Source: an uncultured Candidatus Saccharibacteria bacterium (lineage in GTDB: Bacteria; Patescibacteriota; Minisyncoccia; UBA6257). Taken from it: DNA of 64,000 nucleotides. Made by a program: the position numbers and the translations under genes. Every line of letters begins with the position of its first letter. The stretch's first letter is position 1. The notes beneath the pieces were generated by a model. That model was not told where the DNA came from and did no database searches. It worked only from the letters and a program-made list of their open reading frames with translations. The stretch lies in contig CAYZJA010000002.1 of NCBI GenBank assembly GCA_964479005.1, positions 128,001 to 192,000 on the forward strand. The letters run 5' to 3'. This document shows positions 7,317-48,284 of this stretch, in pieces.

Positions 7317-8801
7317 ATGTCTAAACATTGCATTTATATTTCTACTGCTATTGATTATCCTTCTAACAAGCCTCATCTTGGGCATGCTTTAGAAAAAATT
7401 CAAGCCGATGCTTTAGCGCGTTATTTTAGGTTCCAGGAGAAAGAAGTGTATTTTAGTACTGGGACTGATGAACACGGGCTTAAAATTCAAAAATGTGCAG
7501 AGAAAGCAGAAAAAACGCCTCAACAATTTGTTGATGAAATGGTTAGTTATTTTAAGAATCTTGATAAGGTTTTAGATATTTCTTACGATGATTTTATTAG
7601 AACGTCTGAGTCACGGCATATAAAAGTAGTAGAAGAGATAATTAAGAAAATCTATCAAAAAGGCGATATCTACAAAGGCAGATACAAAGGTTTGTATTGT
7701 ATGGAATGCGAAACTTATTATTTGCCAAAAGACATTCCAGAAGGGAAATGCCCTGTTCATCATTTGATGTTAGAGCAGGTTGAAGAAGAAACATATTTTT
7801 TCAAAATGGGCAAATATAAGGAGGAAATATTTAAACATATTCAAGAGAAATCTAATTTTATTATGCCTGAAAACAGAAAGAAGGAAATTCTGAATCGCCT
7901 TTCTGAACCTATTCAGGATTTAAGTATTTCTCGTAAAAATGTTAAATGGGGTATTCCTTTACCTTGGGACAAAGAGTTCACTTTGTTCGTTTGGGTAGAC
8001 GCTTTGATTAATTATTTATCTACTCTAGATTATTCGAAAGAAAGGTTTAAAAAATTTTGGTCGGATCAAAACGAAGTCTACCATATAATCGGGAAAGATA
8101 TTATTTGGCATCATAGTGTTATTTGGAGCAGTTTATTGCTTTCAGCTGGCTTACCTCTGCCTAAAACTATTTTTGTTCATGGTTTCATTACTGTTGAAGG
8201 AGAAAAAATGTCAAAATCATTGGGAAATATTATTAATCCTGTAGAGTTAGTTGAAAAATATGGCGCTGATGTAGTGCGTTATTTCCTTCTTCGAGAGTTT
8301 TCTCCTTTTGAAGATGGTGATTTTTCTGAACAAAGATTAAAGGAGCGTTATAATTCTGATTTGGCACAAGGCTTAGGTAATTTAGTTTCACGCGTCTTGG
8401 CTTTAGGAGAGCAATATGGGAAACAGATAATGGTTCAATGTTTGGATTCCGATTTGATTACTAAGTCTTGGAGCGATTATAAAAAGCAGATGGAAGCGTT
8501 TCGTTTTAATGATGCTTTAGCAACTACTTGGAATTTAATTTCTTATTGCGATAAATATATCAGTGATACGAAACCGTGGGAAAAAATTAGTGATGAAAAA
8601 GAATTTCAGAAAATCTTAGGCGCATTAGTATATATATTAGGTAATATTTCTTTAATGCTTTCTCCGGCAATGCCTAAAACATCTGAAAAGATACTCGAAT
8701 TTCTTAAATTACAAGGTAGATCAAAACAAGATTGGTTGTCACAAAAGGTTTTACTTGAAAAACAACCACCTTTGTTCCCAAAAAAGGAATCACGAAGTTA
8801 A
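7317..8801 (+). CDS. metG: Methionine--tRNA ligase (short form)
   Basis: Class I HIGH-type motif (PHLGHALE) and KMSKS motif (KMSKSLGN). At 494 aa it lacks the C-terminal tRNA-binding extension. Confidence 0.9.
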   Translation: MSKHCIYISTAIDYPSNKPHLGHALEKIQADALARYFRFQEKEVYFSTGTDEHGLKIQKCAEKAEKTPQQFVDEMVSYFKNLDKVLDISYDDFIRTSESRHIKVVEEIIKKIYQKGDIYKGRYKGLYCMECETYYLPKDIPEGKCPVHHLMLEQVEEETYFFKMGKYKEEIFKHIQEKSNFIMPENRKKEILNRLSEPIQDLSISRKNVKWGIPLPWDKEFTLFVWVDALINYLSTLDYSKERFKKFWSDQNEVYHIIGKDIIWHHSVIWSSLLLSAGLPLPKTIFVHGFITVEGEKMSKSLGNIINPVELVEKYGADVVRYFLLREFSPFEDGDFSEQRLKERYNSDLAQGLGNLVSRVLALGEQYGKQIMVQCLDSDLITKSWSDYKKQMEAFRFNDALATTWNLISYCDKYISDTKPWEKISDEKEFQKILGALVYILGNISLMLSPAMPKTSEKILEFLKLQGRSKQDWLSQKVLLEKQPPLFPKKESRS

Positions 8802-8803
8802 TT

Positions 8804-9655
8804 ATGTTTTTTGACTCTCATACACATTTAAATTTAGTTGCTTTTGACAAAGATAGAGAAGAAATAATAAGAAAAACCCTGGAACAGGGTATTTTTGTAA
8901 TTAATATAGGAACTTGCTATGAAACTTCTAAAAAAGCAATAGAAATTGCTCAACAATATGAAAATTGTTGGGCTACAGTAGGGTTACATCCTAGCCATAC
9001 AATACCAATGAAAATTGATAAAAGTGAATTAAAGATAAGTAGCAAGGAGGATGTATCAGAAGCAGAAGTTTTTAATGAAAAATTTGAATCACTTTTAAAA
9101 GAAGCCTTCAACTTTGCTCAGGGCAGGCCCAAAGTAGTAGCTATTGGTGAGTGCGGATTGGATTATAGTTATTTGAAAGATTTTTCTGGAAAGGATCAAA
9201 TAAAGTATGCAAAGATGGAAGAGGAAGAGTTTAGAAAACAAATTCAAGCTGCCAAAAAATATAATTTACCTTTGTCTCTACATATACGTGATTTATATGA
9301 AAAAGCCTTAATAATTTTGGAAGAAGAAAGATATAAGGGCGAGGCAGTATTCCATTTCTTTACTGGTAAAGTGAATCAGGCGCAAAAGATTTTAAAAAAA
9401 GGATTTTATTTAGGTTTTTCAGGTATCATTACATATTCAGAAATAATGAATGATGTTATTAAAAACGCACCGCTTGAGAAGATATTAATTGAAACAGACG
9501 CTCCTTACGTAGCACCAGTTCCTTATAGAAGCAATAGAAACGAGCCAATCTATGTAAAGGAAGTAGCTAAAAAAATTGCCCAGATAAAAAAACTTCCTCT
9601 AAAAAAGATAGAGGAAGCTACATTTAAAAACACTTTGCGACTTTTTGGAATATAA
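8804..9655 (+). CDS. tatD: TatD family metal-dependent hydrolase/DNase
   Basis: N-terminal FDSHTHL motif with ...GECGLDY and ...ETDAPY signature regions. Confidence 0.85.
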   Translation: MFFDSHTHLNLVAFDKDREEIIRKTLEQGIFVINIGTCYETSKKAIEIAQQYENCWATVGLHPSHTIPMKIDKSELKISSKEDVSEAEVFNEKFESLLKEAFNFAQGRPKVVAIGECGLDYSYLKDFSGKDQIKYAKMEEEEFRKQIQAAKKYNLPLSLHIRDLYEKALIILEEERYKGEAVFHFFTGKVNQAQKILKKGFYLGFSGIITYSEIMNDVIKNAPLEKILIETDAPYVAPVPYRSNRNEPIYVKEVAKKIAQIKKLPLKKIEEATFKNTLRLFGI

Positions 9656-9702
9656 TTTCAAAGGCCCGGAAATATTATTTCATTGTTTAACAATTAGCAA
9701 AT

Positions 9703-9781
9703 AGTAAGGCGAGAAGAGGTTGTTGAAAAAAACTATAGCGATTAGCGTGTTTTTGAAATAACCTCTTCTCGCCTTCTTACT
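9703..9781. terminator. Long inverted repeat between convergent tatD and rnj (candidate bidirectional terminator)
   Basis: Arm AGTAAGGCGAGAAGAGGTT at 9703-9721 is near-perfectly complementary to AACCTCTTCTCGCCTTCTTACT at 9760-9781. No clean T-run follows. Confidence 0.45.
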
Positions 9782-9786
9782 ATCAT

Positions 9787-11490
9787 CTAGACTTCAATGA
9801 CAACTGGCAATACCATTGGGCGGCGCTGTGTTTTTTTAAACAGGAATAAACCTATCTCATTTCTTAAATTATTGCGGATATAACCTTCATTGAATGTATC
9901 TCCTTTTGTTGAACGGCTTACAATTTCCCTCACTAATTTTTTCGTTTGATTTATCAATTCTTTTGATTCTTTCATATAAACAAATCCTTGAGAAATAATT
10001 TCGGGATTATTATAAAGTAGTCCTGTTTTTCTATCCACCAAAGCAATGATGATAAAAATTCCATCCTTGGAAAGGGTTTGTCTTGCTCGAAGAACCACTT
10101 CTTTAATATCCCCCACACCTAATCCGTCAACCATTATATAGTTTGTAGGAACAAATTTTTCTGTTGCTGTTATTTTATTTTTAGTTAATTCAATTATTTG
10201 GCCGTTTGCTCCTGTTACAATATTTTGTTTGCCGATACCCAAGGATTCTGCTATTTCACTATGGAGTTTTAACATAGAAAAATGGCCGTGAATAGGCATA
10301 AAGAAATGTGGCTTGGTGAGATTAATCATCATCTTTGAATCATCTTGATAGCCATGCCCAGAAGAATGAATATCAACCATTTTATAGTGGTAGATATTAG
10401 CGCCTTGTTTTGCCAGATTGTCTTTTAGGTTTTGAACAGCCAATTCGTTTCCCGGAACAACAGAGGAAGAGAAAATAACGGTATCTCCTTTTTGTATCCT
10501 TAAATATTTATGTTCTCTATTCACTATTCTCATTAAAGTGGCTTCACTTTCACCTTGCGCGCCAGTACATAGTATTGTTAGCTTTTGCGGGTCAAGCCGA
10601 CTTGCTTCTTTCCAGTTGATTATAGTTCCTTTTTTAACACTTATGTATTTTAGTTTTTCCGCAATAGCTAAATTAGTTTTCATAGCATAACCTTGAATAA
10701 CAATTTTGCGATTATATTTTTCTGATAGCCAAATAGCTTGCTGAAGCCTGTTGATTAATGAAGCAAATGTGGCTAGTATGATTCTTCCTTTTGTTTGCGC
10801 AAAAAGAGTGTCTAAATTATCCATTATTGTTTTTTCAGAAACAGAATGTCCTGGATTTTCTATTCCAGTTGAGTCGGACATTAGAAGTTGTACGCCTTGG
10901 GAAGCAAGTGTGGCAATCCGTGATAAATCTGCTGGTTTATCACCAATTGGTTGGAAATCAAATTTAAAATCGGTTGCATACATAATTAATCCATGCGGTG
11001 TATTAATGGCTAATCCCAAAGTATCAGGTATGTTGTGGTTTAAATGGAATGGGGAAATTTTAAAAGGGCCTAATGTTGTGGATTTATTTGGGTTTATATC
11101 TTCAATATTCAATTTTTTTAGGCTAGGAAAATCTTCCTGCCTTTTTAAAATTATTCCACGGGTTAAAGGCGGGGCATAAATAGTGGGATAATTTAATTTA
11201 TTAATTAGATAAGGTATGGCTCCAATGTGGTCATAGTGGGCATGAGTGATAAAAACCCCTAATATTTTTTTCTCTGGATGGCTTGTTAAGTATTCAATGT
11301 TAGGAATAATAAAATCAATGCCCGGCATATCTTCATCAGGAAACTGTAGCCCCATATCTACAATCAGGACCTGATTCTCGTATTCAAAAAGAGTCATATT
11401 GCGGCCAATTTCTTCCAATCCTCCCAAAGGAATAATTTTTAATGGGGTTGTGGACGTTTTTGTTTTTTTATAAAATTTTTTACGTTCCAT
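9787..11490 (-). CDS. rnj: Ribonuclease J (metallo-beta-lactamase/beta-CASP RNase)
   Basis: HAHYDHIG metallo-beta-lactamase motif and beta-CASP region. Start placed at MERKKFYKK. The upstream 19 codons of the listed ORF lie over a hairpin/leader. Confidence 0.85.
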   Translation of the reverse strand: MERKKFYKKTKTSTTPLKIIPLGGLEEIGRNMTLFEYENQVLIVDMGLQFPDEDMPGIDFIIPNIEYLTSHPEKKILGVFITHAHYDHIGAIPYLINKLNYPTIYAPPLTRGIILKRQEDFPSLKKLNIEDINPNKSTTLGPFKISPFHLNHNIPDTLGLAINTPHGLIMYATDFKFDFQPIGDKPADLSRIATLASQGVQLLMSDSTGIENPGHSVSEKTIMDNLDTLFAQTKGRIILATFASLINRLQQAIWLSEKYNRKIVIQGYAMKTNLAIAEKLKYISVKKGTIINWKEASRLDPQKLTILCTGAQGESEATLMRIVNREHKYLRIQKGDTVIFSSSVVPGNELAVQNLKDNLAKQGANIYHYKMVDIHSSGHGYQDDSKMMINLTKPHFFMPIHGHFSMLKLHSEIAESLGIGKQNIVTGANGQIIELTKNKITATEKFVPTNYIMVDGLGVGDIKEVVLRARQTLSKDGIFIIIALVDRKTGLLYNNPEIISQGFVYMKESKELINQTKKLVREIVSRSTKGDTFNEGYIRNNLRNEIGLFLFKKTQRRPMVLPVVIEV

Positions 11491-30095: not shown

Positions 30096-30123
30096 TTTTC
30101 TGCATATCACGAATATCTATACT

Positions 30124-30152
30124 TGACAAGAATAGGAAGGGGGTGTATAATA
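30124..30152 (+). promoter_or_regulatory. Consensus sigma70-type promoter (TTGACA-17 nt-TATAAT) for the 30218 gene
   Basis: TTGACAagaataggaagggggtgTATAAT, then an AAAGGAG RBS before the ATG at 30218. Confidence 0.6.
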
Positions 30153-30217: not shown

Positions 30218-30949
30218 ATGAAAAGATTAATATTGATTTTGTTGATATTAGTTGTATGTGTGAGTATTGTTGCTACTGATGTTGTTTTAGCAAAGGCAGC
30301 ATTTGGATCTTGGAAGAAATGGGACGAATCGTTACCGCCGTGGGATAATGAAGATTGGGTTTATAGTGAAGAAAGTTTTAAAATTATAAGTACCCCGCCA
30401 GTTAGTGGAACGCGATTTTGGTTTTGGGCAGAAGAACAAGAACGATGGCGTACTATTACTATTAAAGTAAAAAACCAACCGGCAGCCACGAATGTATTGT
30501 TTCTGTTAACTCGTTTAGCTTTTAAGAAGAATGATAAAGAAAGGGCATCGATTATCCTTTTTTCTCCAGCGCCAATAAGTAATAAGGTTAAGGGGATTGA
30601 AGACGCCCTTGCTACAGCTGAAATTGCCATAGCGGTTTTTCCTCTAGAGAAAGGAAAAAAAGTAGTCATTAGATCTTACGGAAAAAAAGATGGATTACTT
30701 CAATTTTTCAAAAAATGGACAGTTGCTTTGAAAAACAAAAAAGCCATATTTACGAAGTATAAAGATTGGTTTGTAGATCAATCTAATCGACTAACGAAAG
30801 AAAATATAGAGATTTTGCCGCAATTAGTAGTAACTGAAAGTGACAAAAAGAAAAATTTTTTTATTGGTGTAGCTTTACCGCTGTTTAAGGAATTTCTAAT
30901 AAAGGAAAAACTTCCATGGATTGAAGAAGAAACGACAGTTGTTTTTTAA
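30218..30949 (+). CDS. Hypothetical secreted protein (signal peptide)
   Basis: N-terminal MKRLILILLILVVCVSIVA signal-like segment. No recognisable domain. Confidence 0.45.
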   Translation: MKRLILILLILVVCVSIVATDVVLAKAAFGSWKKWDESLPPWDNEDWVYSEESFKIISTPPVSGTRFWFWAEEQERWRTITIKVKNQPAATNVLFLLTRLAFKKNDKERASIILFSPAPISNKVKGIEDALATAEIAIAVFPLEKGKKVVIRSYGKKDGLLQFFKKWTVALKNKKAIFTKYKDWFVDQSNRLTKENIEILPQLVVTESDKKKNFFIGVALPLFKEFLIKEKLPWIEEETTVVF

Positions 30950-31002
30950 CGAAGAAAAGACTAAAATACTTATTTTATAGAAATTAACCCGTTAATGGGC
31001 AA

Positions 31003-31032
31003 GGGGAGGATATTATTTCCTCCCTTTTTGTT
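31003..31032 (+). terminator. Rho-independent terminator
   Basis: GGGGAGGA-tattattt-CCTCCC followed by TTTTTGTTTT. Confidence 0.7.
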
Positions 31033-31101
31033 TTACTTGACATTCCTTATATAAGAGTTATTATTAATATATAAAGCATATAAAGTAATTAATTCAAACA
31101 T

Positions 31102-31899
31102 ATGAATAATAGAAAATATATTATTATTTTTGGAACATTAATTCTTTCATTCGTAGTTATTATAGGAGCAATCACTTATTATAAGGAAAAGGCAGAACAA
31201 GATGCTTTTAGTCTCTCTCAAAATTATCCTGCGATCCTTAATCAATCCTTAGATTCTCTTATTCCTGATGCGAAACAAGATGCTTTTAGTCTCTCTCAAG
31301 ATTTTCCTGCGAGCTTTAATGAACTCTCAGATTTTATTAGTTTCTGTAAAAATGGAGTATTTTCAGATATAGAAGAATTAAAAAATAAGAAGATAAAAGA
31401 GGTTGTTTGTACAATAGGACGAGAATTGAGGAAGTTAGTATTAAAGGATAATACACTGTTAGTTAGTAACTATATTCCTTCAATTTTACCTCTAGACTCA
31501 ATTACCTCTTTCAAACCCGATTGCTACATAGGTATCTCAGTTGATTTCAAAGATGTGGTTAGAGAGTATAATCCTACCCTTTTAGAAGAAGAGGAATTAT
31601 ATTTTTGCAGTATTTCTGAACCTTCTTTGGTAGATCCTCTTATTTTGCAATTAGAATCAAAGTATGATTTGTTTTTTGACGAAGGAAATGTTTCCTGTTC
31701 AGGAATTGAGATGGATAAAACTCCTGCTATGATTTTTCTTGGTTTTGTTCCTTATAAAAAATCTTTAAGTATTAAAGAATATCTTGTTGATGAGCAGACA
31801 GTATCTGAAGTTTTAAATAAACAATCATTTTCTGAAATGAAAGATATATTAAATGATTACCCTATTATCTGGCAAATGGAAAAACTAATTATTCCTTAA
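31102..31899 (+). CDS. Hypothetical membrane-anchored protein with an internal tandem peptide repeat
   Basis: N-terminal TM helix. Repeat QDAFSLSQNYPA / QDAFSLSQDFPA. Confidence 0.45.
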   Translation: MNNRKYIIIFGTLILSFVVIIGAITYYKEKAEQDAFSLSQNYPAILNQSLDSLIPDAKQDAFSLSQDFPASFNELSDFISFCKNGVFSDIEELKNKKIKEVVCTIGRELRKLVLKDNTLLVSNYIPSILPLDSITSFKPDCYIGISVDFKDVVREYNPTLLEEEELYFCSISEPSLVDPLILQLESKYDLFFDEGNVSCSGIEMDKTPAMIFLGFVPYKKSLSIKEYLVDEQTVSEVLNKQSFSEMKDILNDYPIIWQMEKLIIP

Positions 31900-31933
31900 A
31901 AATATATATTAATAATATTAATTATTAAAATCT

Positions 31934-33151
31934 ATGAATAAAACAAATAATATTGTATTAACCATTCTATTATGTTTTTCTATAGTTTTTGTTGTTTATC
32001 CAATAAAAACTAATGCTCAGTTATCTGAATGGGCTCAAAGCGTAATAGATGATTATAAAGAGGAATATGAAGAACCACCAGCTGAAGAGACTCCTCCTGA
32101 TGAAGAGGAGGCTCCTCCTGTTGCTTCGGGCGAAGGATTACCTGTAGAGGACCCCGTAGAAGGACCACTTGAGGAGGGCAACTACGAATATTATATAGGA
32201 TATGTCCCACCTGCACCCCCTGATCCTGACATTACAAATCCACCACCAGGAGGATGGATAGTGACACATATAGAACCAATAAATGAGGAAGAACCCACCC
32301 CTACCCCAATTAAACCAGATCCAATTAAACCAGATGATGAGGACGAAGATGAAATTCCACCTCCTCCACCTCCTTCTAATGATATTGACTGGACACCTTC
32401 ACTACCTCCTATTCAACCTCCTGTTCAACCCCAACAGGTCTGTCGTTGTGTACTAAGATATTCGCATACTCCTTGCGCTAATACATGCGGAGGTAGTAGC
32501 GATACTGGCGGAGGAACACCATCTAGCGGGGGAACACCTTCACCTCCTCCTCCACCACCTAAATATTCTTGTAATCGGTCTTCATGGACATGTTATCAAA
32601 ATTCTAGTGGACCATATTCTTCTTTAAGTAGTTGTCAAAGTGCTTGTGTAGAACCACCTTGTATGATTAATTACTTTGAATTTCCAAAAAGAGCATGGGT
32701 TGGTTATTCAATAACAGGAAAATGGTCAGCAAGTGATTGGTGTGTGGATTGTGATGTGACATGTAGCCCTTATCCAGAATGTGTTTGGAAAGAAAATAAC
32801 ATTGGTATTGGATCTGATGAACATAAATTCACACTTGAACAATCAGGGGCCTATACCTATACTCTTACATGTTATAAACAAGGAGGTAGAGATCAAAAAC
32901 AAGTAACTGTTAATCTTGAAGCTCTCAATCTCCCATGGTGGAGAGAAATCATTCCTGTGTTACGCGGATCATTATTTTCATTTGTAGATGCTGCTTGTGA
33001 ACCTACTCCACCTCCTCCACCTCCTCCACCTCCACCATCATTTAAACCTAAACCTCCTTCTGTGCCAGGCACACCTAAACCTCCTTCTTCACCATCATAT
33101 GAACCTCCTCCTACACCACAATATAGATGTTGGCAATGGGCGTGTCGGTAG
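31934..33151 (+). CDS. Secreted proline-rich, cysteine-rich protein (signal peptide; acidic Pro-rich N-terminus, ~20-Cys core, poly-Pro C-terminus)
   Basis: Signal peptide ...PIKTNAQ. Runs of PPPPPPPPPPP. Cys-rich blocks (CRCVLRYSHTPCANTCGG, CQSACVEPPC, DWCVDCDVTCSPYPECVW, RCWQWACR). Confidence 0.5.
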   Translation: MNKTNNIVLTILLCFSIVFVVYPIKTNAQLSEWAQSVIDDYKEEYEEPPAEETPPDEEEAPPVASGEGLPVEDPVEGPLEEGNYEYYIGYVPPAPPDPDITNPPPGGWIVTHIEPINEEEPTPTPIKPDPIKPDDEDEDEIPPPPPPSNDIDWTPSLPPIQPPVQPQQVCRCVLRYSHTPCANTCGGSSDTGGGTPSSGGTPSPPPPPPKYSCNRSSWTCYQNSSGPYSSLSSCQSACVEPPCMINYFEFPKRAWVGYSITGKWSASDWCVDCDVTCSPYPECVWKENNIGIGSDEHKFTLEQSGAYTYTLTCYKQGGRDQKQVTVNLEALNLPWWREIIPVLRGSLFSFVDAACEPTPPPPPPPPPPSFKPKPPSVPGTPKPPSSPSYEPPPTPQYRCWQWACR

Positions 33152-33284
33152 TATACGGACACTTCTTTGAAGTTCTCAATCTTCCATGGTGGAGAGAAAT
33201 CATTCCTATCTTGCCAGGATTCTTAAGGGGAATCTGGAGATAGAAATACATTGAAACTCATAGAATTCGTTGATATATTAAAAA

Positions 33285-33312
33285 ATACGGAGGTTAGACC
33301 TCCGTATTTTTT
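33285..33312 (+). terminator. Rho-independent terminator
   Basis: ATACGGAGGT-taga-CCTCCGTAT followed by TTTTTT. Confidence 0.8.
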
Positions 33313-33332
33313 AATTATGTTATACTATTTTT

Positions 33333-33935
33333 ATGAAAAGTATTGATGTTTTTGCTTTTATATTTATTTTTGTTATTTCTTGGTTTATTTTTGGTAGGCT
33401 TAGTTTATTTTCTAATATTTTTATTCAATGGGGCATCGGAGCAATCCCTTTATTGTGCTTGATCTTTTATCCAATTTTTATTACCTTAAAAAAGAAAAAA
33501 AATCTTTCAGAAATAGGATTTACTCTAAAGAATTGGCCATTAGCAATTGGTTGGGGAATAGGTATTGGTTTAATAATAGTAATTTTAGATCTATGGTTTT
33601 TTCGAGATAAACCATTGGCTGTTTTTAATAGCTTGGTTTTTGGGATGGCATATTGGGCCTTTTTAGCGTTTTCTCAAGAGATTTTTTTTAGAGGATATCT
33701 TCAGAAGAATTTAGAAAAAGTATATGGTAATTTTTTAGGGTTAATCCTTGCTTCTTTTCTTTTTTCTTTATGGCATATTACTGTTCGTTTTTATCCGGGA
33801 TGGGTGACACCCATTTCATTGTTAAAGGTATTTTCGGTTGGTTTACTTTGGGGTTTATCTTTTCAGAAAACAAGAAGCCTGATTGCTCCTTGTTTATCTC
33901 ATTTTTTGGTTGGAATCTTTCTTAGTAGTTATTAA
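33333..33935 (+). CDS. CPBP family intramembrane glutamic endopeptidase (CAAX protease/Abi-like)
   Basis: EExxxR motif (SQEIFFRGYL) and FxxxH motif (FSLWH) in a multi-TM protein. Confidence 0.7.
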   Translation: MKSIDVFAFIFIFVISWFIFGRLSLFSNIFIQWGIGAIPLLCLIFYPIFITLKKKKNLSEIGFTLKNWPLAIGWGIGIGLIIVILDLWFFRDKPLAVFNSLVFGMAYWAFLAFSQEIFFRGYLQKNLEKVYGNFLGLILASFLFSLWHITVRFYPGWVTPISLLKVFSVGLLWGLSFQKTRSLIAPCLSHFLVGIFLSSY

Positions 33936-34704
33936 CAAACTTTCTTCTGGAATTAATTTTGGAGAGAATTAAAAGGCTTATAGTAATAATGATTAAAGCG
34001 GTTAATTGAGCATGAGTAAATGTGAAATACCATATTTTTTCTTGATAAATAAAATCTCTATGATAACGAAAATACTCTGTTATAAATCTGGCGAGAGAAT
34101 GAAAAATGGTTCCTATAAAAAACAAGGAACCATTTTTTAATTTTATTTTTTTGGAGTAGAAATATAATAATAAAAAAATTAAAAAATACGAGAAAGCTTC
34201 ATAAAGCTGAGTTGGATGTCGCAATAAATTATCTCCTAAACTTGGAAATTTTATTGCCCAAGGAACATTTGTGGTAATGCCATAGCAACATCCATTCAAA
34301 AAACAGCCGATTCGTCCAATAGAATGCCCTATAAGAATTCCCAAAATATAAGAATCACACCACTTTCCCAAATTTTTTTTATTATTTTTTAATACTAAGA
34401 AGAAAGTTATTAAAAAAGCTACGATGAATCCTCCTTGCCAGCTGAATCCATCTTTCCAGAATTGAAATATTTTCAATAAATCTTTTTGGTAAGAATTGAA
34501 ATTTAAGAGAACATAACCAAGCCGAGAACCAATAAACGCGCTAATAATTGTAATAAGGATTAGATTTCTGGCTTTATGCGGATTTAAATTTTTACTCCTT
34601 GTTTCTAAATAAACAATAATTCCGCCTATAATAAATCCTAAAATCATAAAAACCCAGTACGATTCTATTGAAAAATTACCGACTCTAAATAAAATAGGAT
34701 ACAT
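33922..34704 (-). CDS. lgt: Prolipoprotein diacylglyceryl transferase
   Basis: Lgt signature GRIGCFLNGCCYG and a conserved N-terminal region. Confidence 0.9.
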   Translation of the reverse strand: MYPILFRVGNFSIESYWVFMILGFIIGGIIVYLETRSKNLNPHKARNLILITIISAFIGSRLGYVLLNFNSYQKDLLKIFQFWKDGFSWQGGFIVAFLITFFLVLKNNKKNLGKWCDSYILGILIGHSIGRIGCFLNGCCYGITTNVPWAIKFPSLGDNLLRHPTQLYEAFSYFLIFLLLYFYSKKIKLKNGSLFFIGTIFHSLARFITEYFRYHRDFIYQEKIWYFTFTHAQLTALIIITISLLILSKINSRRKFVNNY

Positions 34705-34726: not shown

Positions 34727-34810
34727 TGCCTGGGGTGGGACTCGAACCCACATGACCCAAAGGCCACAGCATTTTGAGTACTGCGCGTAAACCAATTCCG
34801 CCACCCAGGC
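34727..34810 (-). tRNA. tRNA-Leu (CAA), type II
   Basis: Reverse complement gives GCCTGGG-TG-GCG-GAATTGGTTTA-CGC-G-CAGTA-CTCAAAA-TGCTG-long variable arm-GTGGGTTCGAGTCCCAC-CCCAGGC-A. Confidence 0.8.
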
Positions 34811-34893
34811 ATAAAATCAGTATACATTATTTGATGCATAAAATTCAAGGGCAGAAGTTTATTAAATACCTCAACTTTGATATAATAATACTA

Positions 34894-35664
34894 ATGGCAG
34901 AAATTATTGCGATTTGTAATCAAAAAGGGGGAGTAGGAAAAACTACCACAGCCATGAATTTGGGCGCTTATCTGTCCGCTCTTGGAAAAAAGACATTGGT
35001 GGTTGATTTTGATGCTCAAGCCAATGCTACTTCTGGTTTAGGTTTTGATTATAAAAAATTACAAAAAACAGTTTATAACAATTTGATTTCTGATTATTCT
35101 CCAAAAGAAACAATTTATAAGACATCAATTTTTGGTTTGAATATTCTTCCTGCTTCGCCAGATCTGATTGGCGCTCAAGTGGAATTAAATCGTTTTACAA
35201 ACAAGGAATTCAGATTATATCAAATTCTTTCTTCAATAAAGGAATATTACGATTATATTTTAATAGACTTACCTCCCTCATTAGGCGTGCTGACAATTAA
35301 TGGTTTAGTAGCTGCTGATCAAGTTTTAATTCCATTACAAACAGAATATTATGCTTTGGAAGGATTATCTCAGCTTATCACAACAATTGATTTGATAAGG
35401 AGAAACTTAGAAAAAGATTTAAAAATATTAGGCGCAGTTTTGACTTTATATGATAGAAGGAATAAATTAGATAGAATGGTTCTTAAACATATTAGAAGAA
35501 ATTTTCCAGGATATGTTTTTGATACAATAATTCCAAGGAATGTTAGTTTGGCTGAAGCTCCAAGCTTTGGACAATCTATTCTTCAATATAATCCTAATTC
35601 TGAAGGAGCCAGAGCTTATAAGCAATTAGCCCAAGAACTAATTAAAAAACTTGAACATTTTTAA
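34894..35664 (+). CDS. parA: Chromosome partitioning ATPase ParA/Soj
   Basis: Deviant Walker A KGGVGKTT at the N-terminus. Start placed at MAEIIAICNQKGG; the upstream part of the listed ORF overlaps the tRNA. Confidence 0.9.
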   Translation: MAEIIAICNQKGGVGKTTTAMNLGAYLSALGKKTLVVDFDAQANATSGLGFDYKKLQKTVYNNLISDYSPKETIYKTSIFGLNILPASPDLIGAQVELNRFTNKEFRLYQILSSIKEYYDYILIDLPPSLGVLTINGLVAADQVLIPLQTEYYALEGLSQLITTIDLIRRNLEKDLKILGAVLTLYDRRNKLDRMVLKHIRRNFPGYVFDTIIPRNVSLAEAPSFGQSILQYNPNSEGARAYKQLAQELIKKLEHF

Positions 35665-43315: not shown

Positions 43316-44129
43316 TAAAATACTTCTATTTTAATTGCAACGTTCTTGATTTATAATCAGAAAGTTGCAATAATAAGAAGGCTGAATAAAATATGAAAAT
43401 CTTTAAAGAAAACTCTCAGAAACAAAGAAGTTGGTAGGTGTATTACACACGTATTTTAACGCCACCACTTCATGGTGGCTTTTTTAATCCAAGATTTTCT
43501 GACAGAGAGTTCACAAGAGATGACTGAACTTTGAAAACGACTGTCTTTAGTTTGTCTTTTCACTAAAGATGGGAAAGTTGTATTAAGGGCAGATGGTGGA
43601 TGCCTTGACACAGTAAGGCGATGAAGGACGCGGCGTAGCTGCGATAAGCCTCGGGAAGGTGCGTAGTAACCTTTGATCCGGGGATTTCCGAATGGGGCAA
43701 CCCATTCCGATTAATATCGGAATATCCTGATTTTAATAATTAGGAGGCGTACCTGGGGAAGTGAAACATCTCAGTACCCAGAGGAAAAGAAAACAATAAA
43801 ATACATTTTACTACTGTTGTTTAGTACTGAATAGTAGCTAAATGTATTTGTGATTCCTTGAGTAGCGGCGAGTGAAAGAGGAGAAGCCTAAACCAAGCAT
43901 TCAATTTATTGAGTATTTGGGGTTATAAGGTGGATGCGCGGAAGCTTCGGCTTTCAAAATTTAAATCATAATTAATTAAATTATCTGGAAAGATAAACCA
44001 CAGAGGGTGAAAGTCCCGTAGATGAAAATTATTATTGAATTTAGTATCTTTTCTTAATTACCTCGGGGACAGATAACCTTGAGGGAAGGATCCGGAACTA
44101 TACCGGAAAGGCTAAATACTTACTGTGAT

Positions 44130-44175
<46 letters not shown>

Positions 44176-45733
44176 GAGGGGAGTGAAATAGAACCTGAAA
44201 CCATTTTGCCTACAAGCAATCGAAGTCGAGCACTCAGTTTTCTGAGTGCTGGATAACGGTGTGCCTATTGAAGAATGAGCCGACGAGTTTATATCTACTG
44301 CTTAGATTAATTTCGTAAATCGAAAGTAGTCATAGGGAAACCGAGTGTTAATAGCGCGTCATTAATTCTTCTTTTTATCTCGGTTTTCGGGATAAAAAGA
44401 TTAATTAAAATGTAGTGGATATGAGACCCGAAGCCAGGCGAGCTTGCCATGACCAGGATGAACCCCATAGAAATATGGGTGGAGGTCCGAACCCGTGAGC
44501 CGTTCAATACTCTGGGATGAGTTGTGGTAAGGAGTGAAAAGCTAATCGAGCCTGGGAATAGCTGGTTCTCCCCGAAATAGCTTTAGGGCTAGCGGGCTAT
44601 TTATCCTTATGGGGGTAGAGCACTGGATGGTGTGTATAGGGCGAAAGCTCAGCTCACCAATCAAACTCCGAATACCATTAAGGTTATGATAGCCTAGTTA
44701 GACTATGGGGGCGAAGCTCCATGGTCAAAAGGCAACGAATCCAGATCGCAGTTTAAGGTCCCTAAATTTTGGTTAAGTGCTGTCAAAGGTAGTAATTTAC
44801 CATAGACAATTAGTAGGTTGGCTTAGAGGTAGCCATCCTTTAAAGAGTGTGTAACAACTCACTATTCGATCTTGATCTTCGGATCAAGGTGGTAAATTGC
44901 GCCGAAAATGTATCGGGGCTAAAACCAAATACCGAAAACGCGAATTTATCCCAACTAAGGTTGGGGTGAGTGGTAGGGGAGCGTTTCTTAAGCATTGAAG
45001 TTCATAACGTGAGTTTGGATGGAGCTTAAGGAAGTGAGAATGTCGGCATGAGTAACCACAATCCTGATGAGAATTCAGGACTCCGTAAACCTAAGGTTTC
45101 TTTGGCAATGACAATCAGCCAAAGGTTAGGCGGTCCTAAGGCAATGGCGAAAGCTGCAGCCGATGGACAGCCGGTTAATATTCCGGCCCTTCCATTTTTT
45201 TCGATGGGATGACGGAGTGTAGTAGATCGAGCATCTTAGTGGTCTGATGTCTTCGACCGAGAGTGTGTGTCAGGCAAATCCGGCGCATGGTCCCGATTTA
45301 TCGGGACAACTTTCAGGGTAGAAGCGAATTAAGGTTTTTCCTTAATAAGTTGATCGAGCGCACTTCCAAGAAAAATCTCTAAGAATAGGAAAATGGAATC
45401 CGTACCGTAAACCAACACAGGTAGGTGAGGCGAGTAGCCTCAGGAGAACGAGTGATTCCTCGTTAAGGAACTCGGCAAAAAAGCGGGCGTAACTTCGGGA
45501 TAAGCCCTTCCTACCTAAATTTTGCTTGCAAAGTTTAGGCAGGGCGCAGCGAAAGTTTCCCTGGCGACTGTTTACCAAAAACACAGGTCCCTGCGAAACC
45601 GTAAGGTGATGTATAGGGGCTGATGCCTGTCCGATGCCAGAAGGTTAAGAGCGTCGGTCATTTCGATTTATCGGAATGGCTAAGTGCTTGAAGCCCTGGT
45701 CAATGACAGCGATAACTATAATCGTTCTAAGGT

Positions 45734-46449
45734 GGGATACTGCCTTAGTAAAATTCGGCTATATGCTGGAACATCTGGTGTATCCAAGACTACTATGGTA
45801 TAATATGACCATAAAAATATGAGTTATAATATACCAAGTAACAATGTTTTTGGCGCAGACAATCAGCAGGAAAGACTCAGAATTGCTTATTGGATTTTAG
45901 GCTTTACTGATGGTGAAGGATGTTTTTCAATTGCTGTGATAGAGAACAAAACTACTAAATTTGGGAAACAGATTTTTCCTGAATTTGTAATTACACAAGG
46001 AGAAAAAAGTTTAACTGCATTAAAGAAAATTAAAAAATTCTTTGGTTGCGGAAACATTTTTATCAACAAACGATATGATAATCATAATGAGAACTTATAT
46101 CGTTATTGTGTACGTTCTTTACATGACTTAGATAAGAAAATAATTCCGTTTTTTGAAAAATATCAACTCCAAACGTATAAGCAAAATGATTTTTTAATTT
46201 TTAAAAAAGTCATAAAATTCATGATAAAGAAAGAACATTTAACTGAAAAAGGCAGAAAGAAAATTCTTGTCCTCCTCAGTAAAATGAACCATAGAAAAAA
46301 GCGATTTTGAGAATCCTCAGAGACTATATGCCGAACTCCAATATTATATTGGAGAAGATATAGTCCGAACTGCATAGCGATATGCAGAAATAAGCAGAAA
46401 TGTTTATTCGACCTTTAGATTGATTTTCTAGAGGTTAGTAACAAAATTG
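45734..46449 (+). mobile_element. Group I intron in 23S at the I-CeuI-type site (E. coli ~L1923; ...CTAAGGT^AGCGAAATTCC...)
   Basis: Exon sequence resumes exactly with AGCGTAATTCCTTGTCGGGTAA. The intron follows an exon U and ends with G. Confidence 0.75.
45819..46310 (+). CDS. Intron-encoded single-motif LAGLIDADG homing endonuclease
   Basis: LGFTDGEGCF motif. 163 aa, entirely inside 23S intron 1. Confidence 0.8.
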   Translation: MSYNIPSNNVFGADNQQERLRIAYWILGFTDGEGCFSIAVIENKTTKFGKQIFPEFVITQGEKSLTALKKIKKFFGCGNIFINKRYDNHNENLYRYCVRSLHDLDKKIIPFFEKYQLQTYKQNDFLIFKKVIKFMIKKEHLTEKGRKKILVLLSKMNHRKKRF

Positions 46450-47110
46450 AGCGTAATTCCTTGTCGGGTAATTTCCGACGTGCATGAAAGGTATAACGAC
46501 TGGGGAACTGTCTCAACGAGGAGCTCGGTGAAAATGCGTGTCCAGCGAAGACGCTGGGTACCCGCAGCAAGACGAAAAGACCCTAGAAGCTTTACTACAG
46601 CTTGGTATTGAATTTAGTTTTAATCTGCGTAGCGTAGCGGGGAGACTTTGAAGTTTCGCTTTCGGGCGAGATGGAGTCGCCAATGAAACACCCGTCTTTT
46701 TGAAGCTATGTTCTAATCCCGACGGCAAAAACGTCGTGAGACAGTGCCTGGTGGGTAGTTTTCGTGGGGCGCGATCCTCCTAAAGAGTAACGGAGGAGCC
46801 TACTAAGGTTGGCTATCTGCCAATGGAAACGGCAGAGGTAGTGTAAAGGCAAAAGCCAGCTTTATAGTGAGGGAGACATCCCAAACTATTGCGAAAGCAG
46901 AGCTTAGTGACCCGATACGTCATTGTAGAATGCGTAGAGACGTCGGATAAAAGCTACTCTAGGGATAACAGGCTGGTGGAGCCCGAAAGTTCATATCGAC
47001 GGCTCCGCTCGGCACCTCGATGTCGGCTCATCTTATCCTGGGGCTGAAGAAGGTCCCAAGGGTTTGGCTGTTCGCCAATTAAAAAGATACGCGAGCTGGG
47101 TTCAGACCGT

Positions 47111-47838
47111 CGATTTGGCGGCCTAGAAGAGTAATCTTCTATGGAAAAAGTTGACTCATATAGATGAAACCCTATTACATAAATTGTATTTTAACCTGTC
47201 GTGTGGTAGGATAATATCTAGGGAAGTTTAACTTTTTTAAACGTGAAACATCTTTCAAAGACTCAATGTGCTTATATCGCTGGGTTTTTAGATGGTGACG
47301 GAAGTCTTTATATTAGGATTAAACCTAATAAGGATTATCGGTTTAACTATCAAATAGCCCCCAATATAGTATTTTATCAATCCCAAAAAGGATGGTTATT
47401 TCTTCAGAAAATTAAAAAAATGATTAGCGCTGGTTATATGAGAAAAAGAAATGACGGGATTGCAGAATATATTATTGGTGATGTAGCAACAATGTCTTCT
47501 TTGTTGAAGCAAATATCTTCATTTCTGATATTTAAAAAGAAACAAGCACAATTGTTTCTAAGAATTCTTCAAAAGAAAACAAAGGTAAAAACAAAAGAAG
47601 ATTTTATAGCTTTAGCTATAATGATTGATAAATTGGAAAAATTAAATTATTCCAAAAAAAGGCGCATTACTTCGCAAGTTGTTATCAACACGTTAAAAAA
47701 GTTGTAACCCCTTAGAGACTTGTTCTGGTTTTTACCAGAACGGAATAGAGATTTTTAATCTCTATTAATACGTCAACCTCCTAATAAAATATTAGGATGA
47801 TGGTATAGTCCATACATAAAGTAATTTATGATTATATG
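47111..47838 (+). mobile_element. Group I intron in 23S at the I-CreI-type site (E. coli ~L2593; ...ACCGU^CGUGAGACAG...)
   Basis: Exon sequence resumes with CGTGAGACAGGTCGG. The boundary has a 2-nt ambiguity (CG duplicated). Confidence 0.75.
47243..47707 (+). CDS. Intron-encoded single-motif LAGLIDADG homing endonuclease
   Basis: IAGFLDGDGSL motif. 154 aa, inside 23S intron 2. Confidence 0.8.
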   Translation: MKHLSKTQCAYIAGFLDGDGSLYIRIKPNKDYRFNYQIAPNIVFYQSQKGWLFLQKIKKMISAGYMRKRNDGIAEYIIGDVATMSSLLKQISSFLIFKKKQAQLFLRILQKKTKVKTKEDFIALAIMIDKLEKLNYSKKRRITSQVVINTLKKL

Positions 47839-48175: not shown

Positions 48176-48284
48176 CCGCTGGTGTTTTACTTAATTATGG
48201 TCCACCTCTTCCCATTCCGAACAGAGAAGTGAAAGTAATTAAGCCCGATGATACTCTTTTGGGGAAAGTAGGGTATGCCAGCGG
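48176..48284 (+). rRNA. rrf: 5S rRNA
   Basis: CCGCTGGTG...CCCATTCCGAACAGAGAAGTGAAAG...GCCAGCGG with helix I closing, followed by a T-run. Confidence 0.8.

Follow-up and report, generated by a model that had tools for sequence, protein, structure and literature searches.

In the genome of an uncultured Candidatus Saccharibacteria bacterium there is an open reading frame (ORF) whose 3' region recurs shortly after its own stop codon, and the question raised by this locus is what such a gene encodes and where the second copy comes from. The DNA concerned, hereafter the window, comprises 64,000 nucleotides (nt) of contig CAYZJA010000002.1 (positions 128,001 to 192,000, forward strand; assembly GCA_964479005.1); its GC content is low (33%) and positions are given in window coordinates. 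The ORF, at 31934..33151, encodes a protein of 405 amino acids (aa) with 18 cysteines and 77 prolines (19%), a poly-proline C-terminus and the final residues RCWQWACR. An initial annotation, made from the sequence alone, had described a secreted Pro- and Cys-rich protein, and the signal-like N-terminus, the 77 Pro and the 18 Cys bear this out; the core is indeed Cys-rich, but the count is 18 instead of about 20. With a probability of roughly 0.7, in our estimate, this is a gene of an undescribed family of surface proteins that has been fused to a collapsed sister paralog, the repeat being the relic end of the latter, and the product would be retained at the surface by a C-terminal tail, with the neighbouring CPBP protease gene a mere bystander.

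The LPWW-tail family and the origin of the repeat

The ORF is a member of the LPWW-tail family, hitherto undescribed, whose proteins come from Patescibacteria and are secreted, modular and disulfide-rich. The window protein has 30 homologs (E-values down to 1e-108), of which 29 end in a characteristic tail, 0-3 residues from its canonical end. The family consensus of this tail, about 22 residues long and strictly C-terminal, is [N/H/P]LP[W/F]W[R/Q/K/H/E]EIIP-x(2-7)-GFL[R/K]G-x(1-5)-COOH, and it follows a PKD/Ig-like beta-sandwich, 4-Cys modules and low-complexity spacers. The same 29 homologs carry one or other of two subtypes, type 1 (...EALNLPWWREIIPVLPGFLRGIW[K/R]) or type 2 (...PVLPGSLFS[S/F]WPW[K/E]). 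An earlier search with a tail profile over 50 candidates gave nothing, but an exhaustive hidden Markov model search of 1.84 billion representative proteins with a 30-column profile (E <=1e-3) retrieved 70 representative clusters. Their proteins range from 71 to 968 aa and every match ends at most 5 residues from the C-terminus. Some 70 clusters at 50% identity end in ...LNLPWWREIIPVLPGFLRGIW[KR]-COOH, all from Patescibacteria or metagenomes, and the matching genomes are all Patescibacteria bins labelled Paceibacterota, Parcubacteria or Minisyncoccia, together with some mislabelled bins.

In 89 tail proteins the first P of the motif stands 13-27 residues (mode 19) from the C-terminus; none of these tails has a Cys (0/89), 53 of them end in a single K or R, and the longest stretch free of D, E, K, R, H, Q and N has a median of 7 and a maximum of 15 residues. 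A hydrophobic N-terminal segment is present in 66 of the 81 family proteins that start with M. The passengers vary: there are two kinds of beta-sandwich ('YTYTLTCY' and 'FSINGKTNE...'), repeated YSCNxSxWxC...C...C modules and Thr/Pro/Gly linkers, and across the family one tail subtype or another is joined to differing passenger domains and N-termini, as in a mosaic. Several tail proteins occur per genome. The initial annotation's idea of swapped cassettes is broadly borne out, since the family evolves by exchanging such parts. The family and its tail are matched by no Pfam or NCBIfam model, our literature search found no paper describing the motif or the family, and the viral contigs searched held no relatives; the LPWW-tail family looks new.

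Although most of the window protein is clearly homologous to this family (E 1e-108), its tail motif (aa 333-350) lies 72 residues before the C-terminus, compared with the 25 or so that bound its position in the family. The 55 codons that follow are homologous to something else, namely the 3' half of a further gene, the second gene, which other loci have just behind their type-2-tail genes (L022, L040, L044, L032, L067, L052 and L073). This second gene consists of a signal anchor, a Pro-rich linker and the ending Y[S/N/R]CWQW(xC)R, and comes in two lengths. The form of 65-67 aa (L022, L040, L044, L032) reads MKGKFKNQSGFFWLL...VVVVATITTPSPPPPPPP...Y[N/S]CWQWR or ...YSCQQIRCR up to the stop, and the form of about 140 aa (L067, L052, L053, L073) reads MNKKITKYGLL...NSGVDDNVNLTAGLFSFLAN...PPPPSYSCWQWR, again up to the stop. 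At its N-terminus the long form shares 59% identity with P0081, a full-length tail protein. The coordinates of the second gene are 2561-2758 in L022, 2976-3170 in L040, 1749-1946 in L044, about 3010-3433 in L067 and about 270-700 in L073.

At the nucleotide level, window positions 33003-33170 match the 3' half of the second gene with 79% identity over 92 nt in L022 and 85% over 59 nt in L067. The similarity goes on beyond the stop codon: L073 has a decayed tail after its second gene, 70% identical to window 33115-33227, and in L067 and L052 the stop of the second gene, which is truncated there, leads directly into sequence 91% identical to window 33240-33315, with the terminator inside. On the tail side of the junction the codons are those of a type-2 tail (GGA TCA TTA TTT TCA TTT), not those that the second gene uses for its own GLFSF, and beyond it the sequence is similar to the last part of the transmembrane (TM) segment of the L022 gene (GTT GTA GCA...ACT CCA). 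Because the motif is internal and the next 55 codons match the 3' half of the second gene, the ORF would be a chimera of two tandem paralogs, and its poly-proline C-terminus looks as though it, too, derives from the second of them.

The repeat fits the same history. It extends over 59 nt (32916-32974 against 33167-33225) with 85% identity and a spacing of 251 nt. Its 39-nt core (32918-32956) is found again at 33169-33207 with 2 mismatches, a recurrence expected 0.00 times by chance in 100 dinucleotide-preserving shuffles, so that the initial annotation was right to consider it significant, if slightly off in its numbers (the second copy starts at 33169, not 33168, and the 45-nt span has 5 mismatches, not 4). 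The mismatches are mainly C/T and G/A transitions, plus two G-to-C changes. Nor are the repeat and the ORF an assembly artefact, since the exact 405-aa protein occurs on 8 contigs, which come from no fewer than 4 independent samples or assemblies, and the downstream copy is also present in all four loci shown (L001-L004, from four independent samples). Copy 2 translates as EVLNLPWWREIIPILPGFLRGIWR followed by a stop, that is, as a complete type-1 tail with its stop at the canonical family position, and the two copies thus represent different tail subtypes (SLFSF in copy 1, GFLRGIWR in copy 2). To judge from these alignments, the repeat is accordingly best read not as a copy of the ORF's own 3' end but as what is left of the 3' end of another tandem paralog, since collapsed. 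The initial annotation had suspected the footprint of a cassette swap or partial duplication; a rearrangement footprint it is, but it is not best explained by the gene having duplicated its own 3' end, to which the intervening 192 nt are foreign.

Related genomes are found both with and without this arrangement. The closest relative (L009, a 484-kb contig of a Patescibacteria metagenome-assembled genome), 93% identical over the C-terminal domain, has a canonical gene without the 251-nt insertion. L014 and L102, from a different species and with another type of passenger, show the same junction, ...GFLFSFVHAAGC..PPPP..PQYSCIKYLCR. Their architecture reads ...INLPWWREIIPVLQGFLFSFVHAAGCGEEEPTPPPPP...PQYSCIKYLCR up to the stop, after which comes a second tail that has decayed (FEVLDFPWCREIISVLQ, with PWC for PWW and a 7-nt insertion) and lies in frame after the stop, unlike the relic of the window, which is in the +2 frame. 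Among 113 tail occurrences at about 100 loci, this arrangement is found only in the window genome and in L014/L102.

The present arrangement could be reached in a few steps. Two family genes would first have stood side by side in tandem; a deletion would then have removed the second of them from the start of its first Cys module up to its tail; a further deletion (some 180-190 nt relative to L022) would have joined the tail of the first gene in frame to what remained of the second, and the repeat would have been left as the orphaned 3' end of the latter. By itself, then, a repeat behind a stop codon is nothing out of the ordinary where paralogs collapse, as far as these comparisons go.

Some features of other family members deserve mention. 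Gene decay is frequent: P0081 (L105, 278-1141) has a premature stop within the tail (PVLPED, then the stop), in P0016 (L024, 7720-7740) a change of TGG to TGA has cut the tail to SLFSF, and L018 has a 56-aa fragment ORF of the family at 198-368. P0056 carries a Hint/intein-like (bacterial intein-like) domain after the signal peptide (aa 34-169, matched by both Pfam and NCBIfam), and P0068 has one by sequence resemblance only. A conserved element stands directly after tail-gene stops at several non-syntenic sites (L018 367-450, L013 3515-3600, L011, L017 and L105 1145-1240); it consists of a near-consensus promoter, TTGACAAATTATTTTTCTTTGCTATACT, and then a hairpin/terminator of about 55 nt, GCCGTTGTTTTGAGG.GCTTGC...AACAGCGGCATTTTTT, and is a candidate small RNA or leader.

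The protein, its island and a possible role for the tail

Like other members of the LPWW-tail family, the window protein has a signal peptide and Cys-rich modules, with a PKD/Ig-like domain ahead of the tail. The spacer behind the signal peptide is acidic (36 D+E against 3 K+R in aa 30-170, with 36 P). Structure prediction, one of the checks that the initial annotation had proposed, models the second 4-Cys module with a predicted local distance difference test (pLDDT) score of about 90, and the next domain, also at about 90, as a beta-sandwich fold resembling PKD domains. The score then drops from 72 to 50 along the tail and stays at about 50-60 in the extension, falling below 50 at its end; the tail is therefore predicted to be a flexible appendage outside the fold. 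In its general design the protein recalls adhesins with PKD/Ig-like domains and other disulfide-rich extracellular proteins, but its similarity to them lies below the Pfam thresholds (I-set, E 0.069) and its Cys pattern and tail are particular to the LPWW-tail family.

The gene order around the family is well conserved. Over 104 loci the frame is pilM-N-O-B ... (h243) h265 LPWW [CPBP lgt(-)] parA parB, where h243 and h265 are the membrane or secreted hypotheticals that the initial annotation had placed behind a consensus promoter, correctly so (TTGACA-17-TATAAT, without a mismatch). A homolog of h243 is found at the same position in L009, L010, L024, L028, L036, L041 and L086. What lies inside the frame is another matter. 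Between the window and L009, PilB is 96%, ParA 93%, ParB 89% and CPBP 86% identical, as opposed to 30% for h243 and 27% for h265, and the LPWW protein is alignable only over its C-terminal 38% (the L009 counterpart of 30218-33151 is 7573-10339). The window h265 is closer (57-67%) to the h265 of more distant genomes than to that of L009, and this suggests allele exchange. Judged by these identities, the frame from pilMNOB to parAB is conserved and 30218-33151, within it, forms an island that is hypervariable and recombining.

We counted the neighbours of 65 distinct family genes, 38 of which have enough flank upstream and 46 downstream. A partner gene (h265, p217 or p200) lies at most 1 kb upstream in 30 of the 38, and the window conforms, h265 being the gene of a TM-anchored protein (about 200-265 aa) upstream of the tail gene. 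A distant lineage, L016 (4651-14124), has two pairs of a TM-anchored protein of 200-217 aa and a tail protein (968 and 447 aa) directly upstream of pilT, pilC, a type IV pilin gene and pilD (the prepilin peptidase gene), and L092 has the order pilB-p217-LPWW. Proximity to type IV pilus genes is therefore seen again in an arrangement of another kind.

Bacteria belonging to the Candidate Phyla Radiation (CPR), or Patescibacteria, are thought to live attached to host cells, and little is known of how they display and vary their surface proteins. The window protein would be a Sec-exported, disulfide-stabilised surface protein of such an episymbiont. Its flexible tail would retain it at the cell surface, most likely by docking to the membrane-anchored partner encoded upstream (h265), or else through the membrane interface or the type IV pilus apparatus, and the variable passenger would mediate contact with the host, prey or environment. 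In the window allele the tail is no longer terminal and is masked by a Pro-rich segment with a C-x4-C-R loop at its end, so that the protein may have another kind of anchoring or may be released or shed. Putting these elements together, we tentatively propose, as a possibility that we would not yet bet on, that the tail is a new C-terminal surface-retention or sorting signal of Paceibacteria-type CPR, lacking a TM segment, that docks to the h265 receptor and/or the type IV pilus and displays a hypervariable disulfide-rich repertoire, of which the window would hold a 'tail-masked' variant.

Known C-terminal sorting signals (LPXTG/sortase, PEP-CTERM/exosortase, and the MYXO-, Synerg- and JDVT-CTERM systems with their CPBP-family myxosortases) offer the nearest comparison. 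They too are short conserved motifs at the extreme C-terminus of varied signal-peptide proteins, occur several times per genome, are better conserved than their passengers and sometimes adjoin a CPBP-family protease. The LPWW tail differs in that it is not tripartite, has no consistently linked processing enzyme and is covered by no NCBIfam or Pfam model. With respect to sortase substrates in particular, the motif is LPWW[RQ]E, there is no TM helix, and the sole LPXTG-related NCBIfam match (E 0.35) is over the N-terminus. Non-covalent anchoring pairs, such as cohesin-dockerin or the WxL, SLH and GW modules of Gram-positive bacteria, are also among the closest known systems. As regards variation, the Neisseria pilE/pilS and Mycoplasma vsp/vlp systems share with this locus a hypervariable surface gene set in a frame that is conserved, alleles of mosaic make-up and, downstream, a partial 3' copy without a promoter; the window, however, has one relic, which has decayed in the sister lineage, and neither variant alleles in the population nor a recombinase or a signal of conversion are seen. 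For the same reasons (a single relic, decayed in L014, with neither variant nor restored alleles) the locus does not qualify as a diversity-generating retroelement (DGR), a shufflon or a pilS-like system.

Several points weigh against the interpretation adopted here. The order and mechanism of the deletions are inferred from present-day loci, and the binding of the tail to h265 is likewise inferred. In at least 7 diverged loci the ORF of the second gene has stayed intact although it carries many in-frame indels, and both lineages with the fusion have it in frame; the extension, with its Pro-rich segment and CxxxxCR ending, may consequently be functional rather than a wreck. No recognisable partner is found for 8 of the 38 family genes with enough upstream flank, and homology between h265 and the L016 partner proteins is undetectable (hhalign probabilities of 1.8% and 0.1%). 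Finally, the main lineage could have inherited its synteny with the type IV pilus genes, and the only independent arrangements are those of L016 and L092. Still, an undescribed motif in about 70 clusters, an upstream partner gene and a hypervariable island that keeps a fixed place in the chromosome next to type IV pilus genes make testable candidates for host contact and for the anchoring of surface proteins.

The CPBP neighbour and other explanations

The gene at 33333..33935 clearly encodes a CPBP protease (PF02517 core, E 6.7e-17, with a score of 62 bits where the cut-off is 22.4), and it is tempting to see in it the enzyme that cleaves the tail as a sorting signal, in the manner of a myxosortase, with the window gene as the substrate encoded beside it. 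Its best NCBIfam matches are in fact the myxosortase families MrtS, MrtP and Mrt_core (E 1e-9), albeit far below their cut-offs (38 bits against 130 for MrtS, 36 against 100 for Mrt_core). A CPBP gene lies immediately 3' of a tail gene in 11 loci from several species, and the tail is itself like a sorting signal, being strictly terminal on many signal-peptide proteins, with several per genome. Such co-occurrence is how Haft's sorting systems were discovered (10.1101/2023.06.07.544157). The substrates of Mrt proteins (MYXO-, JDVT-, Synerg- and CGP-CTERM) carry a tripartite signal made up of a motif with an invariant Cys, a TM helix and an Arg cluster (10.1101/2023.06.07.544157; see also PMC11980579). 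The LPWW tail has none of the three: no Cys, no hydrophobic stretch of TM length (the figures for the 89 tails are given above) and no Arg cluster. Moreover, CPBP lies within 400 nt downstream in just 11 of the 46 family genes with enough flank; 5 lead directly to parA with no CPBP and the other 30 are followed by something else, so that 35 of the 46 are not followed by it. In the window a strong terminator (33277-33315) stands between the two genes. CPBP travels as a unit with lgt, the pair being found upstream of the cassette in L074 (5945-7430), and it is conserved like the housekeeping flanks (86%), in contrast to the hypervariable cassette. As a side observation, L090 has lgt without CPBP.

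Because the tail has no tripartite signal, the adjacency is weak, a terminator intervenes and CPBP is conserved like the backbone, a dedicated relationship of CPBP with the tail protein, be it as a processing enzyme or as an immunity factor, is unlikely as far as sequence can tell, and cleavage of the tail by this protease is improbable. CPBP is probably a syntenic neighbour and not a dedicated partner, and the initial annotation's view of it as a linked factor is not supported. That annotation had also named what would speak against its own reading: a fixed housekeeping gene, which this hypervariable one is not, and a lack of consistent linkage to CPBP, which is what we find.

Returning to the repeat, which we take to be the relic of a collapsed paralog, one might instead imagine programmed variation: a crossover between the copies would delete 251 nt and switch the gene between an extended and a canonical end, or recoding would append the second tail. 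It is true that a crossover within the repeat would restore a perfect canonical protein of 352 aa ending at the stop of the relic, that the window relic is intact, with no internal frameshift, and that the family is plainly recombinogenic. Nevertheless, the extended form is the one present in all four loci shown (8 contigs), the 90% cluster of the window protein contains no shorter variant, and neither of the predicted restored proteins was found among 15 billion proteins. In L014 the second copy has decayed and its frame with respect to the stop is another one, and therefore there has been no long-term selection to keep it and there is no conserved recoding geometry. The confinement of the arrangement to two lineages also counts against a programmed switch, which we regard as very improbable.

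Three related candidates were rejected outright. A programmed frameshift or readthrough onto the second tail is at odds with the frames, which differ (+2 in the window, in frame after the stop in L014), and with the decay in L014. A stand-alone small ORF, MLAMGVSVVYGHFFEVLNLPWW..., has no sequence resembling a Shine-Dalgarno site and no NCBIfam match, and is not conserved in L014. DGR activity or adenine-specific mutagenesis does not agree with mismatches that are not confined to template adenines, and no reverse transcriptase gene was among the neighbouring genes examined. Those neighbours, from pilM to dprA (about 25.8-41.4 kb), include neither a reverse transcriptase nor a recombinase gene.

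The initial annotation had also raised the idea of a bacteriocin-like effector, in which CPBP/Abi would provide immunity or processing and the repeat would be a trace of toxin cassettes being swapped. CPBP/Abi proteins do act as bacteriocin immunity factors in Firmicutes, the locus is hypervariable, and in a related genome a gene of a papain-like C39/C70-family peptidase lies between two partner-plus-LPWW cassettes (L005, 11335-11946; also L006, 2359-2970). However, the protein has no double-glycine leader, and the Pfam, NCBIfam and PADLOC matches include no bacteriocin, toxin or defence family. A signal peptide, spacers, a PKD-like domain and a conserved tail make up the architecture of a surface protein or adhesin, the family proteins reach 968 aa, their linkage to CPBP is weak (11/46), and the family is absent from viral contigs. 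We hold this explanation to be extremely improbable and recommend that the locus not be annotated as a bacteriocin/immunity pair; an origin from a phage or a defence system was rejected as well, there being no relatives on viral contigs and no PADLOC matches. Replication slippage that simply duplicated the 3' end of the gene in tandem, with later divergence, would account for two direct copies 251 nt apart, but it hardly merits consideration given that the repeated part is 59 nt only, that the 192 nt between the copies match a separate gene elsewhere and nothing upstream in the ORF, and that the copies are of different tail subtypes.

Features of the locus and minor observations

The features on which the foregoing relies are collected in Table 1.

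Table 1. Features of the island and its immediate surroundings, in window coordinates
Feature	Position	Strand	Basis or remark
Sigma-70-type consensus promoter, TTGACA-17-TATAAT	30123..30151	+	12/12; precedes the 243-aa gene
h243, secreted or membrane hypothetical	30218..30949	+	First gene of the variable island; no Pfam/NCBIfam family
Terminator-like hairpin after h243	31001..31027	+	
Promoter-like site	31037..31064	+	11/12; before the h265 and LPWW gene pair
h265, partner	31102..31899	+	N-terminal TM helix, disordered linker, extracellular beta-sandwich
ORF read as a chimera of an LPWW-tail family gene and the 3' part of a second paralog	31934..33151	+	405 aa, ATG start
Signal-peptide-like N-terminus, aa 1-29, MNKTNNIVLTILLCFSIVFVVYPIKTNAQ	31934..32020	+	Hydrophobic segment
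Acidic Pro-rich low-complexity spacer, aa 30-169	32021..32440	+	Composition
Two small 4-Cys modules, CRCVLRYSHTPCANTC and KYSCNRSSWTCYQNSSGPYSSLSSCQSAC	32441..32647	+	Gly/Ser/Pro linker between them
PKD/Ig-like beta-sandwich domain, aa 242-331	32657..32926	+	6 conserved Cys
Tail motif copy 1, aa 329-350, EALNLPWWREIIPVLRGSLFSF	32918..32983	+	Type-2 subtype (VLRGSLFSF); internal, not C-terminal
In-frame extension, aa 351-405, VDAACEPTPPPP...PQYRCWQWACR and stop	32984..33151	+	55 codons; homology to the 3' half of the second gene
Relic tail copy 2	33169..33243	+	Type-1 subtype; +2 frame relative to the ORF; without usable upstream ORF
Strong intrinsic terminator	33277..33315	+	18-bp stem and T run; ends the h265-LPWW unit
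CPBP/Rce1-like intramembrane protease	33333..33935	+	PF02517; conserved backbone, not cassette
Lgt, prolipoprotein diacylglyceryl transferase	33922..34704	-	Convergent with CPBP, 14-nt overlap

Rfam has nothing at the locus, and elsewhere in the window it identifies only rRNA and tRNA genes; a 16S gene was found nowhere in the window. The 23S rRNA gene (43573-47141) exceeds the length of the Rfam model by some 640 nt and has within it an ORF for a LAGLIDADG homing endonuclease (45819-46310, E 1.9e-24), and the insertion is most likely an intron. A second LAGLIDADG ORF (47243-47707, E 2e-10) lies between the end of the 23S gene and the 5S gene (48177-48284). Lastly, a tRNA gene on the minus strand (34727-34810) overlaps the TTG start of the listed ParA ORF (34774..35664, plus strand), the true start of which is probably the internal MAEIIAICNQKGG.

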